Counted from the stretch's first letter, positions 13,928 to 18,530 are shown. The stretch is 64,000 nt of DNA from Thermoanaerobaculia bacterium (GCA_044226625.1 JBGAGQ010000028.1:6282-70281), one strand, 5' to 3'. Notes: generated from the letters alone by a model not told the origin. Program-made: numbers and translations.

Positions 13928-14311
13928 GTGGCGCGTCGAAGGAAAGCGGACGACAGCTCGTTCGTGATGATCAGCGTGGTCTCGGAGCGATTCGGAATCC
14001 ATCCGCAGACCTTGCGTCTCTACGAGCGGGAGGGGCTGATCAAACCGGTACGGAGCGCGGGCAACACCCGCCTCTACGACGAGGTGGCGATCCGCCGGCT
14101 GAAGATGATTCTCGCGCTCACCCGCGACATGGGCGTAAACCTCGCGGGGGTCGAGGTCATCCTCAACCTCCAAGAACGCCTCGACCAGGTTCAAGGCGAG
14201 CTCGACAAAGTCCTCGACTTCGTCCGCCAAGAGATGTCCGACCGCCGCGCCGGTGTCGACCGCCAACACGCCCTGGTAAAGATCGAGCGGGGGGCGTTGG
14301 TCAAGCGGTAG
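13928..14311 (+). CDS. hspR: MerR-family heat-shock transcriptional regulator (HspR-like)
   Basis: MerR HTH ISVVSERFGIHPQTLRLYEREGLIKPVRSAGNTRLY. Last gene of a dnaK operon, as for HspR. GTG start 1 nt after the hsp20 stop. Confidence 0.8.
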   Translation: MARRRKADDSSFVMISVVSERFGIHPQTLRLYEREGLIKPVRSAGNTRLYDEVAIRRLKMILALTRDMGVNLAGVEVILNLQERLDQVQGELDKVLDFVRQEMSDRRAGVDRQHALVKIERGALVKR

Positions 14312-14443
14312 ACAATCGGCCTATTGGCATATCGAATTTTTATAAAAACGATGCGGCCGTGGGGCGAATCCTGTAGATTTCTCGCGTCTAAGAGGGGAAA
14401 TTGAGAAAGGCGGTAGCTTAGGTCTTTCTCGACAGGAGAGAGA

Positions 14444-15421
14444 ATGGTCGAGGAGATTCTCTGGAGAATCCTAGTCTGGGGCAGATTGTACTTGCGGTGG
14501 GCGTTCGGATTAATTTTCAACACATGGATGATGTTTGGTTTATTTGCAACAGGGCTCCTTGCTTCGAACAGGGATGGCGCTTCTGGCTGTCTTGCTCCGC
14601 TAGTTCTGGCGTTATTGCTAGTTGGTTCAGATGTGGCCGCAGCGTTCTCTATCGAGCAGGATAGGAAGCGTGAGGCTGCCGAAAAAGATAACTTCACGGG
14701 CGGTAGATTGTTCTTTCGATACGGAGATGAGATTCACAGAGCGATATTCTCGATAAAGGTTGGAGATTCATGGTCAAAACAGCAAGTAGATTTGTTTGCG
14801 GTGAAGCTGCGGGATGAAATGGCTAGTCGTTTGGCGGCCAGGCTTTCCTGTGATCGCTGTGGAGTGAGCGCAGTCGCAATCCGAAACTCGTTAACAGGCA
14901 GTGAAAAGATCTTCCTCCGGATATTGGCTACCACTCCCCGGGGGAGTCTCGTTGCCCATTTCGCGCATTATGCACCCTTCCAAAATACGATCACGGCTCA
15001 TTATTTTACCTTTGCGCGTGGCACGGTAGGAATTCCGGAGACCATCCTCTGGGTTTTGGAGGCGCCCTACCGCATTTGGTTCTGGGGGATACCCTGGTTG
15101 TTGAACCGGTATAGCGTCCTGTCCGAGGTAAGTGATTTCAGGAATGATTCGTACGACCTCATAGACCTCCAGACGATGTACATGATGATCAGCGACAGCC
15201 TGTTGCGAGTTACGGCGGATGTGCTGCGAGACGAAGGGCTTCTCACGGAGGAGTTGCAGACCATAATTGTGAATCAACTCTTCTCGGCGCAGCAGGTGAA
15301 CATCGGTGGCCCGCGTTCTCAGTTCCTGAATGTTTCTGTGAGTGGGGACTCTTCGGTTGGGAATGTGTCCCAAGAGGCCAATGTGAACGAAGTTGGACCG
15401 TCTGGCAAAGACGTCGCGTAG
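14444..15421 (+). CDS. hypothetical multi-TM protein with a G/N/S/V/Q-rich C-terminal tail (island gene 1)
   Basis: 325 aa; AGGAGAG RBS at 14434-14440. Hydrophobic helices at about res 19-40, 49-70 and 201-220. No recognisable family motif. The tail (res 283-325) carries QFLNVSVSGDSSVGNVSQ. GC about 48-50%, against about 68% in the flanks. Confidence 0.7.
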   Translation: MVEEILWRILVWGRLYLRWAFGLIFNTWMMFGLFATGLLASNRDGASGCLAPLVLALLLVGSDVAAAFSIEQDRKREAAEKDNFTGGRLFFRYGDEIHRAIFSIKVGDSWSKQQVDLFAVKLRDEMASRLAARLSCDRCGVSAVAIRNSLTGSEKIFLRILATTPRGSLVAHFAHYAPFQNTITAHYFTFARGTVGIPETILWVLEAPYRIWFWGIPWLLNRYSVLSEVSDFRNDSYDLIDLQTMYMMISDSLLRVTADVLRDEGLLTEELQTIIVNQLFSAQQVNIGGPRSQFLNVSVSGDSSVGNVSQEANVNEVGPSGKDVA

Positions 15422-15509
15422 GGCGGCGGTTCAAAGGCCCGTGCGAGGCGTAGTTGAACTCGAGCCACGGTTGGTTATTATTTCACCGTCGTGTTGAAGT
15501 AGGGGTGCT

Positions 15510-16238
15510 ATGGCCGAGATAGAAGCCAGCCAGCGACTCAACATTCACGTCGAAGGCGGGTCAACCGTTGGGAATGTCTCACAGGTCTACGGAGCTCGCC
15601 GTAGCGAGCCGGGCCGTCGGGCAGACGACAGGTCGGTTCTGCTATTGATTGCGTCCGATCCGTACTCTCGCGACCGTCTCCGGCTGGATCTAGAAGTGAG
15701 GGCCGTTGAAGACGTGCTTCGATCATCCGGTCGTGAAGATAGCCTGGTCCTTGAACAGCTCTGGGCGCCGACTTTTTTCGATGTGCAAGAGGCCCTCCTT
15801 CGGTACCGGCCCACGTTCCTTCATTTCAGTGGCCATGGGACACCCCTCGGACAGCTGGAGTTCGAGAAGAGCCCGCGGCTGCCGAACGAGGGTAGACGCC
15901 CGAGCCAAAGCGATCAGCGAACGATTGATTCCTTTGCAGATCTCTTGAGAGGCATAGAAGGTGTGAGAATTCGTTGCTTGGTTTTGAACGCCTGCTTCTC
16001 CGAAACCCTGACGACAGAAGTTGCGGGGTGTGTGGACTGTGTGATCGGGCTCGCCGCAGAAGTCCACGACTCTGCAGCGGTCCAATTTGCTCGAGGTTTC
16101 TACGGAGGATTGGCGTGGGGGCAGAGCGTTCAGGCTGCGTTTGACCTGGGCGTCGCACAAGTGAGCTCGAAGAACGACGCGAGTCTCTATCGACTCATGG
16201 CTCCCACTTCCGATCCCCGATCCGTGAAGATGCTGTAA
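15510..16238 (+). CDS. stand-alone CHAT/caspase-fold cysteine protease-like protein (island gene 2)
   Basis: 242 aa. VLLLIASDP...RPTFLHFSGHG (His109) and IRCLVLNACFSE (Cys162) match the His-Cys dyad spacing of CHAT/caspase-like peptidases. AVQFARGFYGGLAWGQSVQAAF resembles the CHAT C-terminal helix. The N-terminal residues 8-25 repeat the tail motif of gene 1. Confidence 0.7.
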   Translation: MAEIEASQRLNIHVEGGSTVGNVSQVYGARRSEPGRRADDRSVLLLIASDPYSRDRLRLDLEVRAVEDVLRSSGREDSLVLEQLWAPTFFDVQEALLRYRPTFLHFSGHGTPLGQLEFEKSPRLPNEGRRPSQSDQRTIDSFADLLRGIEGVRIRCLVLNACFSETLTTEVAGCVDCVIGLAAEVHDSAAVQFARGFYGGLAWGQSVQAAFDLGVAQVSSKNDASLYRLMAPTSDPRSVKML

Positions 16239-16344
16239 TAGCTGTGAGGATGAAGCCTTGCCAAAGGTAACCAGCGAGCCTAACGCAACAACGCCGAAGT
16301 ACTGCTTTCTTCCGTGAGGTTGAGTCTGGAGGCATCTCTCGAGC

Positions 16345-17699: not shown

Positions 17700-18530
17700 G
17701 TGTCCGAAACGGTGGATTTGAGAGTGTGTCCCGAGTGCGGAGGACGGGGTTGGATCGTCGTGGCCGACGGCGGCAACGGTACGGCCCGGGTCTGCGTCTG
17801 CCGGGAGCGCGAGCGGATCCCCCGGCTGTTCGAGGCCGCGCGAATCCCCGAGCGCTATCGGCGTTGCCGCCTGCAGACGTTCGACCGAAGCCACAACCAT
17901 TCGCGGGCGAAGGAACAGCTGCTGCGGGCGTATCGCGAGAGCGAGCGCTATCTCGATGAATTCCTGACCGAGAAGGGGGACTTTCGCGAGTCCGGGCTGA
18001 TCTACTTCGGTCCCCCGGGCGTAGGCAAGACCCATCTCGCGGTCGCGGTGCTCTCCGAGCTGATCGAGCGATACGGCGTCCACGGGCGGTTCGTGAATTT
18101 CAACGAGCTGGTGCAGGACATCAAATCGACGTTCGATCCGAGCTCCGAGGAGTCGACGGCCCAGGTTTTCGATCCCCTCTCCCGCGCGGAGGTCCTGGTC
18201 TTCGACGAGTTGGGCGGACAGAAACAGACGCCCTGGGTGAACGACCTCCTTTACCTCATCCTCAACCAGCGCTACGTGAAGCGCCTGCCGACGATCTTCA
18301 CCACGAATTATCTGTTGCAGCCGGAACGGGCGGCCAAGGCGCCGGCCTCCGGTCCTCGCTCGCTCGACCGCGGAGCGGACGCTCCGGCCGACGTGGAGGT
18401 CACGCGGCTCCTCTCCTCCCGCCTCCCCGCGCCGCTCGTCTCGCGCATCTTCGAGATGGCAAAGCCCATCGACCTCGCCTCGGCGACCGATTTCCGTCGC
18501 GAGGTCTTGATGCACGGCAAGCATGCTTGA
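17700..18530 (+). CDS. DnaC/DnaI/IstB-like AAA+ ATPase with an N-terminal Cys4 zinc ribbon
   Basis: CPECGGRGW...CVCRE at the N-terminus. Walker A FGPPGVGKTHLAVAV, Walker B VLVFDELG, sensor TIFTTNY. Confidence 0.8.
   Translation: MSETVDLRVCPECGGRGWIVVADGGNGTARVCVCRERERIPRLFEAARIPERYRRCRLQTFDRSHNHSRAKEQLLRAYRESERYLDEFLTEKGDFRESGLIYFGPPGVGKTHLAVAVLSELIERYGVHGRFVNFNELVQDIKSTFDPSSEESTAQVFDPLSRAEVLVFDELGGQKQTPWVNDLLYLILNQRYVKRLPTIFTTNYLLQPERAAKAPASGPRSLDRGADAPADVEVTRLLSSRLPAPLVSRIFEMAKPIDLASATDFRREVLMHGKHA

Follow-up and report, generated by a model that had tools for sequence, protein, structure and literature searches.

The window analysed here, a 64,000-nucleotide stretch from a Thermoanaerobaculia bacterium (GCA_044226625.1 JBGAGQ010000028.1:6282-70281), carries two adjacent genes on its + strand. 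Gene 1 (14444..15421) encodes a 325-residue membrane protein of an uncharacterised family, and gene 2 (15510..16238), recognised from its ORF and a Pfam CHAT match, encodes a minimal CHAT (caspase-like) protease of 242 residues. Both are separated by an 88-bp spacer (15422..15509, + strand) with a purine-rich ribosome-binding site, GTAGGGG, upstream of gene 2. No terminator was found within this spacer, and a scan for promoters and terminators returned counts no higher than those of shuffled sequences. At related loci the spacing of the two genes ranges from a 4-nt overlap to ~15 bp, compared with the 88 bp of the window. The composition profile places the pair in a low-GC island (14300..16300) containing just these two genes, with a GC content of 49-59% versus 61-70% in the flanks. 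Pfam annotation of the neighbouring genes revealed dnaK-hsp20-merR on one side and a redoxin gene on the other. Direct repeats at the island borders were limited to chance-level 15-17-mers, and no tRNA genes were found there. As part of the best explanation for the locus, genes 1 and 2, together spanning less than 2 kb, most likely form a self-contained and horizontally mobile two-gene cassette.

The AF2 model of the gene 1 protein (pLDDT 83, pTM 0.78) comprises two N-terminal transmembrane (TM) helices (14447..14680, + strand), assigned from AF2 secondary structure and a Kyte-Doolittle scan and located at residues 2-42 and 47-79 with hydrophobic cores at ~20-41 and 46-70. They are followed by a predicted cytoplasmic alpha/beta domain of residues 95-283 (14726..15292, + strand), hosting a conserved Trp-rich helix, SPFTIWFWGIPWLLN (15032..15100, + strand). 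Foldseek comparison of the model with the PDB yielded nothing at E<=1e-3; SRPBCC/START/Bet v1-like folds matched weakly (E ~2e-3 to 5e-2, TM <0.4) and were not assigned. As modelled, the alpha/beta domain appears to be novel, having no significant structural neighbour. On the sequence level, 24 homologues were collected for gene 1, whose small family amounts to ~110 clusters among 1.84e9 representatives. Pfam returned no match for gene 1 or among 25 family members, and NCBIfam, PADLOC and a PDB sequence profile revealed no significant relative of gene 1. Several longer members carry N- or C-terminal extensions (P0183, P0190, P0191, P0194, P0202, P0245 and P0248), in which Pfam found no domains either. 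Candidate identities were rejected in two further cases: a SLATT 2-TM effector, with no SLATT Pfam match at E<=1 in gene 1 or its 24 homologues, and a gasdermin, with no Pfam match, no PDB gasdermin match and an AF2 fold consisting of two TM helices plus the alpha/beta domain. Pfam, NCBIfam and the AF2 model showed no NTPase or repeat domain in gene 1, and its copy of the shared motif is C-terminal, unlike the N-terminal copy of NLR/STAND NTPases or other oligomerising sensors.

Gene 2 scored 28.8 bits with the Pfam CHAT model (cut-off 24), and its C-terminal half matched the PADLOC model SAVED_CHAT at 8e-10. The first Foldseek match was the SAVED-CHAT filament 8tl0 (E 3e-14, TM 0.68, 23-24% identity), followed by caspases-4, -6 and -8. 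Within the catalytic domain (residues 42-240, 15633..16229, + strand, AF2 pLDDT ~90), the motifs HFSGHG with His109 (15822..15839, + strand) and NACFS with Cys162 (15987..16001, + strand) contribute the columns that are invariant in the CHAT alignment, i.e., H105, S107, G108, H109, G110, N160 and C162. Judged by alignment and model, gene 2 encodes a predicted protease of the CHAT/caspase-hemoglobinase fold with an intact His/Cys dyad. The preliminary description had named the partner of gene 1 as a CHAT protease rather than an NLR, and the Pfam score agrees with the CHAT assignment. The CHAT domain of ~200 residues comes without a sensor module, and the only appendage beyond it is a 37-residue N-terminal extension. 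In CHAT paralogues the N-terminal position is occupied by EAD7, EAD9, EAD1, bDLD1 or TRADD-N, while in a sister CHAT clade (L027) an N-terminal motif, GDVVGRDKVT, is shared with the N-terminus of an adjacent NB-ARC/TPR protein. Pfam detected no EAD or Death-like domain in the window proteins. Since such domains were found instead in paralogous CHATs and in partners of distant gene 1 relatives, the relation to EAD systems is an analogy of position and not one of membership.

The N-terminal extension of gene 2 shares a short motif with the C-terminal tail of gene 1. Residues 293-310 of gene 1 (QFLNVSVSGDSSVGNVSQ) align with residues 8-25 of gene 2 (QRLNIHVEGGSTVGNVSQ) at 12 of 18 identical positions without gaps, or at 13 of 19 once the preceding Ser is counted. 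The copies accordingly extend to SQFLNVSVSGDSSVGNVSQ (gene 1 residues 292-310, 15317..15373, + strand, motif HMM 21.7 bits) and SQRLNIHVEGGSTVGNVSQ (gene 2 residues 7-25, 15528..15584, + strand, motif HMM 24.1 bits). When all six frames of the 64-kb window were scanned with the motif HMM, just these two sites scored, the next one reaching 6.4 bits. Under BLOSUM62 the top ungapped segment shared by the proteins reached 61, i.e., 8.7 sd above 300 shuffles of both proteins (mean 30.1, sd 3.6, max 46), none of which reached the observed value. At the DNA level 32 of 54 positions are identical, the codons differ at eight of the 12 identical residues, and the longest shared run is the 11-nt gttgggaatgt. 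Both the ungapped identity and the protein-level, non-duplicative nature of the likeness had been put forward in the preliminary description and hold, as do the further echoes it saw in the gene 1 tail. These are an upstream half-repeat, QQVNIGG (15290..15310, + strand), which resembles the first half of the motif, and a trailing NVNEVG (15380..15397, + strand), read directly from the sequence 3' of the motif. The half-repeat is kept solely in the sub-clade of P0005, P0007, P0149, P0160 and P0196, with a weak second motif-HMM stretch at QQVNI, and NVNEVG is not conserved beyond the sub-clade of the window. The two motif copies lie in termini predicted to be disordered (gene 1 residues 295-325 and gene 2 residues 1-37, both pLDDT<50 in AF2), and the monomer models depict the motif regions as disorder only.

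Extension of the motif analysis to the family level defined a stretch of ~20 residues in which N, Q, S, G, V and I are abundant, with the consensus [ST]-Q-N-[IV]-x-[IV]-[TS]-G-S-x-G-V-[ST]-[ILF]-G-[NDG]-[VI]-[SQ]-Q. The alignment of the motif comprises 44 instances. Hydrophobic residues alternate at positions 4/6, 12/14 and 17, Gly occupies positions 8, 11 and 15, and Gln is near-invariant at positions 2 and 19; the consensus can thus be read as three short putative strands with glycines between them. Enrichment was highest for N (5.9-fold), followed by Q (2.7), S (2.6), I (2.0), G (1.9) and V (1.5). Depletion affected L, P, E, D and the aromatic residues, but not K. This composition agrees with the N/Q/G/V/I bias reported for bacterial BASS motifs (Dyrka et al. 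2020, bioRxiv 2020.01.06.895854). Matches of the motif HMM were confined to the last 60 residues in the gene 1 family (66 of 100 full-length members) and to the first 45 residues in CHAT homologues. Altogether, the motif is conserved over ~100 clusters of the family and at over 20 loci. Among 683 word-sharing candidates, a profile of the doubled motif gave no match at E<=10. The Pfam models HET-s_218-289, NACHT_sigma and RHIM matched neither window protein at E<=1, which is a weak test given how short these models are.

At every related locus with readable downstream DNA (L001-L007, L010-L013, L016-L020, L022, L025, L026 and L029-L032), a gene 1 homologue is directly followed by a gene whose product begins with the cognate motif. 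The check proposed in the preliminary description, i.e., a motif profile applied to homologous pairs, came out positively: in each orthologous pair examined the motif keeps to these two termini, and its copies co-vary. For 10 of 13 tails the head of the own partner was the top match, and it ranked third or better for the others; none of 20,000 permutations reached the observed sum. Cognate pairs shared on average 11.0 of 21 residues, compared with 7.1 for non-cognate pairs and likewise 7.1 for tails compared with tails (0 of 100,000 permutations reached the observed value, p<1e-5). Pair-specific variants and indels include SSFRDVNQ in L003, SPGMxFSGxNQxIS in L007, RNxQ...SPG...DVxV in L019 and a short form common to the window and L012. 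Hence the motif is conserved, and its two copies co-evolve towards identity within each pair. As the tails are closer to the heads of their own partners than to other tails, shared ancestry alone was ruled out as the source of the likeness. Gene conversion or recent DNA duplication was ruled out as well, because across pairs only 68 of 146 identical residues, fewer than half, use the same codon, at a DNA identity of 52-70%.

The gene 1 family is the constant partner in these pairs, and the downstream modules vary. Besides CHAT proteases, distant gene 1 relatives use the same motif to pair with EAD11 adaptors or with small helical proteins of 106-120 residues. Gene 1 appears to stand where the NLR/STAND NTPase stands in the sister CHAT clade, with a swappable module downstream.

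Comparison with known systems places the pair close to amyloid-type signalling. BASS1-10 motifs occur in Bell/NLR gene pairs, with CHAT among the attached domains (Dyrka et al. 2020, bioRxiv 2020.01.06.895854). Like the motif of the window, they comprise ~20-25 residues at the C-terminus of one adjacent product and the N-terminus of the other, and are N/Q/G/V/I-rich, beta-strand-prone and occasionally pseudo-repetitive; our comparison with BASS1-11 was made by description and composition. In contrast to BASS1-10, the window pair has, in place of an NB-ARC/NACHT NLR, a protein that lacks an NTPase and joins two TM helices to a novel alpha/beta domain. The polarity is also reversed, placing the motif at the N-terminus of CHAT and the C-terminus of the constant partner, and the hosts are Thermoanaerobaculia/Acidobacteriota MAGs rather than Actinobacteria and Cyanobacteria. 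In Bab/Agp, BASS11 is used by a non-NLR sensor, and experiments showed that abortive infection is set off by amyloid templating; BASS11 is also reported with CHAT, TIR, EAD7, NACHT and NB-ARC (Ibarlosa et al., bioRxiv 2024.11.07.622273). Bab/Agp resembles the window pair in being a two-gene cassette of a non-NLR protein and its partner, with an amyloid motif there and a motif known from sequence here. It differs in that the window membrane protein is large (~300 residues), predicted to be stably inserted and constant, the soluble partner being a protease. The fungal HET-s/NWD2, HRAM, sigma and PP pairs share with the window the adjacent genes and the co-evolving terminal motif, including a rung of ~21 residues with short strands, Gly/Asn arcs in between and sometimes an extra repeat on one side; the window pair, however, shows no HET-s_218-289, NACHT_sigma or RHIM Pfam match, no HeLo/Hell domain and no NLR.

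The same logic of a homotypic adaptor linking a core protein to a separate effector is found in EAD, Death-like and TRADD-N pairs (Kaur et al. 2020, PMC7159879; Kaur et al. 2021, PMC8195603). There the adaptor is a folded helical domain, whereas the window adaptor would be a 20-residue disordered, beta-prone peptide, and unlike the NTP-dependent conflict systems of Kaur et al. the window cassette encodes no NTPase switch. SAVED-CHAT of type III CRISPR (PDB 8tl0), the closest solved structure to gene 2, is a protease active in a filament, i.e., by induced polymerisation; polymerisation is driven there by a fused, cyclic-oligoadenylate-binding SAVED domain, while gene 2 has the motif extension only. 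The Drosophila PGRP-LC/LE-Imd cRHIM and death-receptor/caspase pathways (reviewed in PMC13506858) also lead from a membrane receptor, with a short amyloid motif, to a caspase-family protease. This is an analogy without sequence relation, and adaptors and kinases stand there between receptor and protease.

On balance, and with moderate confidence, we favor a reading in which a BASS-like homotypic cross-beta adaptor links a membrane-anchored hub or sensor with exchangeable effectors, in this cassette a proximity-activated protease. In-register parallel beta stacking requires identity, which is selected here over complementarity; the motif therefore most likely acts in the manner of HET-s/NWD2 and BASS, and we infer that it may polymerise in a cross-beta form. 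Considering the constancy of gene 1 and the variability of the downstream modules, the role of effector falls more likely to the CHAT protease, and that of hub or sensor to gene 1. In such a sequence of events a trigger would cluster or unmask the tails of the membrane protein, which would then nucleate a cross-beta assembly, recruiting the protease and templating its N-terminal motif. At the high local concentration thus reached, CHAT could become active by induced proximity or polymerisation, as for caspases and the SAVED-CHAT filament, and the activated protease would cleave cellular targets, probably as part of an abortive-infection or conflict response. The suggestion of the preliminary description that the motif serves homotypic signalling of an amyloid or EAD-like type is thereby upheld in part. 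It gains from the conservation, the co-variation, the BASS-like composition and the adaptors (EAD, bDLD, TRADD-N) or NLR-paired motif in CHAT paralogues. Gene 1, a small effector in that description, is instead a membrane protein whose two TM helices precede a novel alpha/beta domain and whose partner modules vary.

Several observations on gene 1 and its surroundings count against the favored reading. Gene 1 lacks an NTPase or a recognisable sensor domain, and no PADLOC model covers it. No conserved defence-island neighbours were found across the related loci examined, and a viral contig collection contained no relatives of the gene 1 family. The reversed motif polarity, the extra half-repeat, the frequent effector role of 2-TM proteins and the family member in an injection-system cluster, all taken up below, weigh against it as well.

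The pair resembles the amyloid-type signalling pairs of fungal and bacterial cell-death systems and seems to be a new version of them without an NLR. Tentatively, and at somewhat less than even confidence, it can be regarded as an undescribed NTPase-free amyloid-signalling system consisting of a 2-TM sensor/nucleator, a BASS-like motif of reversed polarity and interchangeable modules, and as a bacterial counterpart of the receptor, amyloid/death-fold adaptor and caspase arrangement. In this cassette the module would be CHAT; elsewhere it would be an EAD11 adaptor, a component of a contractile injection system or a small helical protein that targets membranes. So far, prokaryotic amyloid-type signalling has been linked to NLR-like NTPases and in one case to a TPR-GreA/B-C-PIN sensor, always together with small Bell-type executioners. 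If true, a membrane protein without an NTPase switch could drive the same templating logic, which could turn on a caspase-like protease through induced proximity, and one hub family could be wired to different outputs by exchange of a 20-residue peptide. The compact system would then allow an easy test of how short cross-beta motifs encode partner specificity, for which the natural pair-specific variants are a ready-made panel. The list of bacterial conflict and defence systems would likewise gain a candidate family, and engineering a portable, orthogonal protein-recruitment tag.

The direction of signalling could also be the reverse. Gene 1 would then be a 2-TM membrane-disrupting executioner, inactive until its C-terminal motif is converted as in HET-S, Bell or Bab, and the downstream motif protein (CHAT, or an EAD11 adaptor tied to a sensor encoded elsewhere) would be the activator. 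We consider this unlikely. The motif polarity of the favored reading is opposite to that of the published pairs, in all of which the effector bears the motif C-terminally and the sensor N-terminally. Gene 1 of the window sub-clade has the extra half-repeat QQVNIGG, a trait of effector-side proteins in HET-s and BASS1/6. Furthermore, 2-TM proteins are often effectors of abortive-infection systems, those such as SLATT being predicted pore-forming effectors in related conflict systems, and an EAD11-only partner could bridge to an NTPase sensor bearing EAD11. Against this, the CHAT domain of ~200 residues lacks a sensor module; in the sister clade the N-terminal position of CHAT takes its signal from the NB-ARC/TPR protein, and effector-associated adaptors fill the same position in CHAT paralogues. 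A constant gene 1 with variable partners follows the usual pattern of one sensor and many effectors, and its TM helices are predicted to be stably inserted rather than to form a masked amphipathic helix.

Rather improbable, in our estimation, is a non-polymeric docking, in which the two copies would join in a stable beta-zipper, 1:1 or as a small oligomer, and so constitutively hold the protease, or another partner, at a membrane anchor. Neither templating nor a prion-like switch would then take part. In its favor, strict co-occurrence and co-variation establish just a contact between the two copies, and the amyloid reading follows sequence logic. A gene of the family whose partner is a motif-EAD11 protein is found within a contractile-injection-system cluster, flanked by the spike and PAAR genes; such a setting would be expected of a structural membrane anchor and suits a constitutive anchor no less than a sensor. 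Heterodimeric strand pairing, however, needs no sequence likeness between the copies, whereas selection for identity, the N/Q/G-rich BASS-like composition and the long disordered termini are signatures of in-register stacking. A minimal caspase-like domain moreover needs an activation step, and the nearest structural relative of gene 2 is filament-activated.

The preliminary description had offered, as an alternative to signalling, that the motif is the recognition or cleavage site of CHAT, present in its propeptide and in its substrate, here gene 1. The arrangement would resemble that of protease-gasdermin operons. The adjacency of a protease gene and a membrane-protein gene, the exposed position of both copies in disordered termini and the near-invariant Gln residues would suit this proposal. 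It is nevertheless disfavored, and we regard it as very unlikely, because the same tail-head pairing occurs with non-proteases (EAD11 proteins and the 106-120-residue helical proteins). The motif also differs from pair to pair, indels and length included, while the CHAT active-site region is conserved, and gene 1 is not gasdermin-like in sequence or fold. Cleavage may still take place on top of docking. A chance low-complexity match, or a functionless leftover of recent DNA duplication or gene conversion, for which the shortness and compositional bias of the motif and its 11-nt identical run speak, deserves practically no credence, being refuted by the shuffles, by the codon comparison, by the breadth of conservation over family clusters and loci, and by the permutation tests, which depict a concerted evolution at the protein level.

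The adjacent genes 1 (14444..15421, plus strand, 325 aa) and 2 (15510..16238, plus strand, 242 aa) encode proteins sharing a motif, located in the C-terminal tail of the first (15317-15373) and the N-terminal head of the second (15528-15584). They are the sole sizeable and coherent ORFs of a low-GC island (14300-16300; GC content 49-59% compared with 61-70% in the flanks), which neighbors a dnaK-hsp20-merR (hspR-like) heat-shock cluster on one side and a divergently oriented redoxin gene on the other (Pfam). Flanking repeats, tRNA genes, or an integrase were not found at the island borders. A DnaC/IstB-like AAA+ ATPase gene (17700-18530; Pfam IstB_IS21, 3.9e-15) lies just past the redoxin gene. 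Exactly as reported in the preliminary description, the alignment of gene 1 residues 293-310 with gene 2 residues 8-25 is gap-free and has 12 of 18 positions identical, or 13 of 19 when the preceding Ser is included. The top ungapped BLOSUM62 segment between both proteins scored 61, and a chance match is ruled out by the shuffle control (n = 300; mean 30.1, sd 3.6, maximum 46). The same description had placed the similarity at protein level instead of a DNA duplication, had named gttgggaatgt as the only long stretch identical in DNA, and had noted further echoes of the pattern in the gene 1 tail. All of this was reproduced: 8 of the 12 identical residues are encoded by differing codons at a DNA identity of 32/54, this 11-mer is the sole long identical run, and the half-repeat QQVNIGG (15290-15310) and NVNEVG (15380-15397) are present upstream and downstream of the motif, respectively. 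The former is kept only within the sub-clade of the homologous proteins P0005, P0007, P0149, P0160, and P0196 and is reminiscent of the double repeats found on the effector side in HET-s and BASS1/6 (bacterial amyloid signaling sequences) proteins. No motif-like sequence other than the two copies was detected when the entire window was scanned in all six frames.

Scanning genome and metagenome collections with the gene-1 family alignment yielded 17 loci, 16 of them distinct; Thermoanaerobaculia/Acidobacteriota MAGs and soil metagenomes contributed most. In all of the 17 loci with downstream DNA, a CHAT gene directly follows the gene-1 homologue, with a spacing from a 4-nt overlap to ~15 bp. 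On longer contigs the surrounding gene neighborhoods are unrelated between loci, thus defining the pair as a self-contained two-gene cassette. The motif was present on all tails and all heads examined, bearing out its proposed conservation at the same termini of homologous pairs. For 10 of 13 tails, the cognate head (encoded at the same locus) was the top-scoring one, with a rank of three or better for the remainder, and the cognate scoring sum was matched by none of 20,000 permutations. In a register fixed at 21 columns, the number of shared residues is 11.0 for cognate pairs and 7.1 for non-cognate pairs, the latter value also being obtained between tails of different loci; no permutation out of 100,000 reached the cognate identity value. 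Common ancestry followed by independent divergence was rejected as explanation, as it cannot bring a tail nearer to its own head than to orthologous tails. Pair-specific variants include length changes, e.g., SSFRDVNQ (locus L003), SPGMxFSGxNQxIS (L007), an insertion-bearing form (L006), a short form (window and L012), and RNxQ..SPG..DVxV (L019). Since codons are shared at only 68 of 146 identical residues and the DNA identity of cognate copies is 52-70%, DNA-level homogenization is not the cause, and the codon differences and the cognate-pair permutation result rule out gene conversion. The tail/head motif pair is real, conserved, and functionally meaningful. In one related locus (L005, 5884-6800), the gene-1 homologue is broken into two overlapping ORFs, owing either to an assembly error or to a frameshift, in which case it may be a pseudogene; the CHAT gene downstream likewise lies in two overlapping frames.

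The motif consensus derived from 44 instances, [ST]-Q-N-[IV]-x-[IV]-[TS]-G-S-x-G-V-[ST]-[ILF]-G-[NDG]-[VI]-[SQ]-Q, reads as three short strands with alternating hydrophobic residues and glycines between them. Relative to the remaining sequence of the proteins that bear it, the motif is enriched in N (5.9-fold), Q (2.7), S (2.6), I (2.0), G (1.9), and V (1.5) and depleted in L, P, E, D, and aromatics, a bias that BASS and fungal amyloid signaling motifs are reported to show (Dyrka et al. 2020, bioRxiv 2020.01.06.895854). In gene-1-family proteins, the motif HMM matched exclusively within the 60 C-terminal residues (found in 66 of 100 full-length members, i-E<=1), and in CHAT homologues exclusively within the 45 N-terminal ones, with no match elsewhere in these proteins. 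The Pfam models HET-s, NACHT_sigma, and RHIM did not match either window protein at E<=1.

Gene 1 has no relatives in Pfam, NCBIfam, PADLOC, or PDB sequences, and it belongs to a small family, with 110 clusters (50% identity) in a collection of 1.84 billion representatives. Its confident AF2 model (pLDDT 83, pTM 0.78) comprises two long predicted N-terminal transmembrane helices, an alpha/beta domain (residues 95-283), and the disordered, motif-bearing tail (295-325); Foldseek returned no significant neighbors, only weak SRPBCC-like matches. A strongly conserved Trp-rich helix (residues 197-219, 15032-15100; family consensus SPFTIWFWGIPWLLN) sits inside the otherwise soluble alpha/beta domain and may contact the membrane as an interfacial or re-entrant segment. 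The product of gene 2, a minimal CHAT (caspase-like) protease, scores above the Pfam CHAT gathering cut-off and aligns with the C-terminal half of PADLOC SAVED_CHAT, in agreement with the earlier assignment of a CHAT protease, not an NLR, as motif partner. In its AF2 model, the disordered residues 1-37 precede a compact alpha/beta domain (pLDDT ~90), which among solved structures comes closest to the activated SAVED-CHAT filament 8tl0 (Foldseek E 3e-14, TM 0.68), followed by caspases-4, -6, and -8. His109 (HFSGHG) and Cys162 (NACFS) are invariant across the homologues, and the protease domain looks catalytically competent.

In place of the motif, the nearest CHAT paralogues have folded adaptors (EAD7, EAD9, EAD1, bDLD1, or TRADD-N), N-terminal in most of those scanned; the motif on CHAT occupies the adaptor position of its relatives. 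A sister CHAT clade (P0105, P0075, P0071) bears a different N-terminal motif, ...GDVVGRDKVT... (CHAT N-terminus ...GGVNISGSTVNVQGDVVGRDKVT), repeated N-terminally by an adjacent NB-ARC/TPR NLR-like protein (...GDVVGRDKIT...; ...DLSIAGDVVGRDKIT). This pair, with both copies N-terminal (L027, 5001-7795; JGI 3300037465, Ga0394876_0000166), represents the classical NLR context of amyloid signaling with CHAT as predicted effector. Distant gene-1-family members keep the C-terminal motif, and the product of the next gene opens with the cognate one. These partners are helical proteins of 106-120 aa without a Pfam family (L022, 5891-6253; L030, 1009-1329; L017, 837-1163), EAD11-domain proteins of 116-118 aa (L025, L032), a protein with a Pro/Ser-rich linker and a domain without assignment (L031), and one incomplete at the contig end (L026). 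Two of the three helical partners (L022, L030) possess a hydrophobic/amphipathic C-terminal helix (e.g., ...WAAPILKVLAESLLPGVLSKLF), and all three may be effectors that target the membrane, oriented as the mirror image of Bell/Bab proteins. As the downstream products vary beside the retained gene-1 motif, gene 1 is the constant partner and the downstream module exchangeable. At L032 (5203-6768; GCA_965184825.1, contig CBCYPW010000338.1), a gene-1-family member of 403 aa with an N-terminal extension and its 116-aa motif-EAD11 partner lie within a contractile-injection-system cluster, preceded by two gp19 tube genes, DUF5908, CIS_tube, and a VgrG-like spike gene and followed by PAAR and gp25 baseplate genes. 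This suggests that the family may anchor or couple contractile injection machines to the membrane.

The proteins of genes 1 and 2 are thus linked through their disordered, facing termini by a BASS-like motif whose copies co-evolve toward identity, and the homotypic coupling of the two proteins is very probably direct. Selection favors sameness, which is a requirement of parallel in-register stacking, and on these grounds a shared cross-beta (beta-arch) assembly of the motif copies is probable, their templating being slightly more likely than not. Clustering or unmasking of the gene 1 membrane-protein tails would nucleate this assembly, which would recruit and template the protease N-terminus. 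CHAT would then be switched on by induced proximity or polymerization, as in the SAVED-CHAT filament and caspases, with a cell-death or abortive-infection type response as outcome. We consider it reasonably probable that signaling runs from gene 1 to CHAT. The opposite direction, with gene 1 as HET-S-like membrane executioner, fits the motif polarity of published pairs and the extra half-repeat of the window tail, but is unlikely, as CHAT has no sensor of its own and a constant hub faces partners that vary. A membrane anchor or 1:1 tether that does not polymerize agrees with the injection-system locus, yet accounts less well for the BASS-like composition and for the selection toward identical sequences, and is rather improbable. 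The proposal that the motif is the protease's own recognition or cleavage site is disfavored, since non-protease partners exist and the motif varies pair by pair. The pair is rated as a putative amyloid-type or adaptor-type coupling in a bacterial conflict cassette, with even chances for a role in defense or conflict.

CHAT has already been listed among the domains attached to BASS motifs (Dyrka et al. 2020, bioRxiv 2020.01.06.895854), and the experimentally validated Bab/Agp BASS11 system employs a non-NLR sensor (Ibarlosa et al., bioRxiv 2024.11.07.622273). The gene 1/gene 2 coupling shares its logic with Bab/Agp, with the EAD principle of Kaur et al., and with BASS/NLR pairs. Unlike these systems, the window cassette is without an NTPase or other known sensor, its constant partner is a 2-TM protein from a new fold family, predicted to be stably inserted in the membrane, and both motif polarity (reversed) and host lineage differ. 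Neither the gene-1 family nor a membrane-protein/CHAT motif pair was found in the literature searched, the incomplete coverage of which does not prove absence. Two remote family members, P0245 (639 aa) and P0248 (727 aa), carry a helical extension of 350-450 residues without a Pfam match. It follows the 2-TM and alpha/beta module and a degenerate motif-like ..DNSQIQIGT.., an order that may represent an all-in-one architecture.
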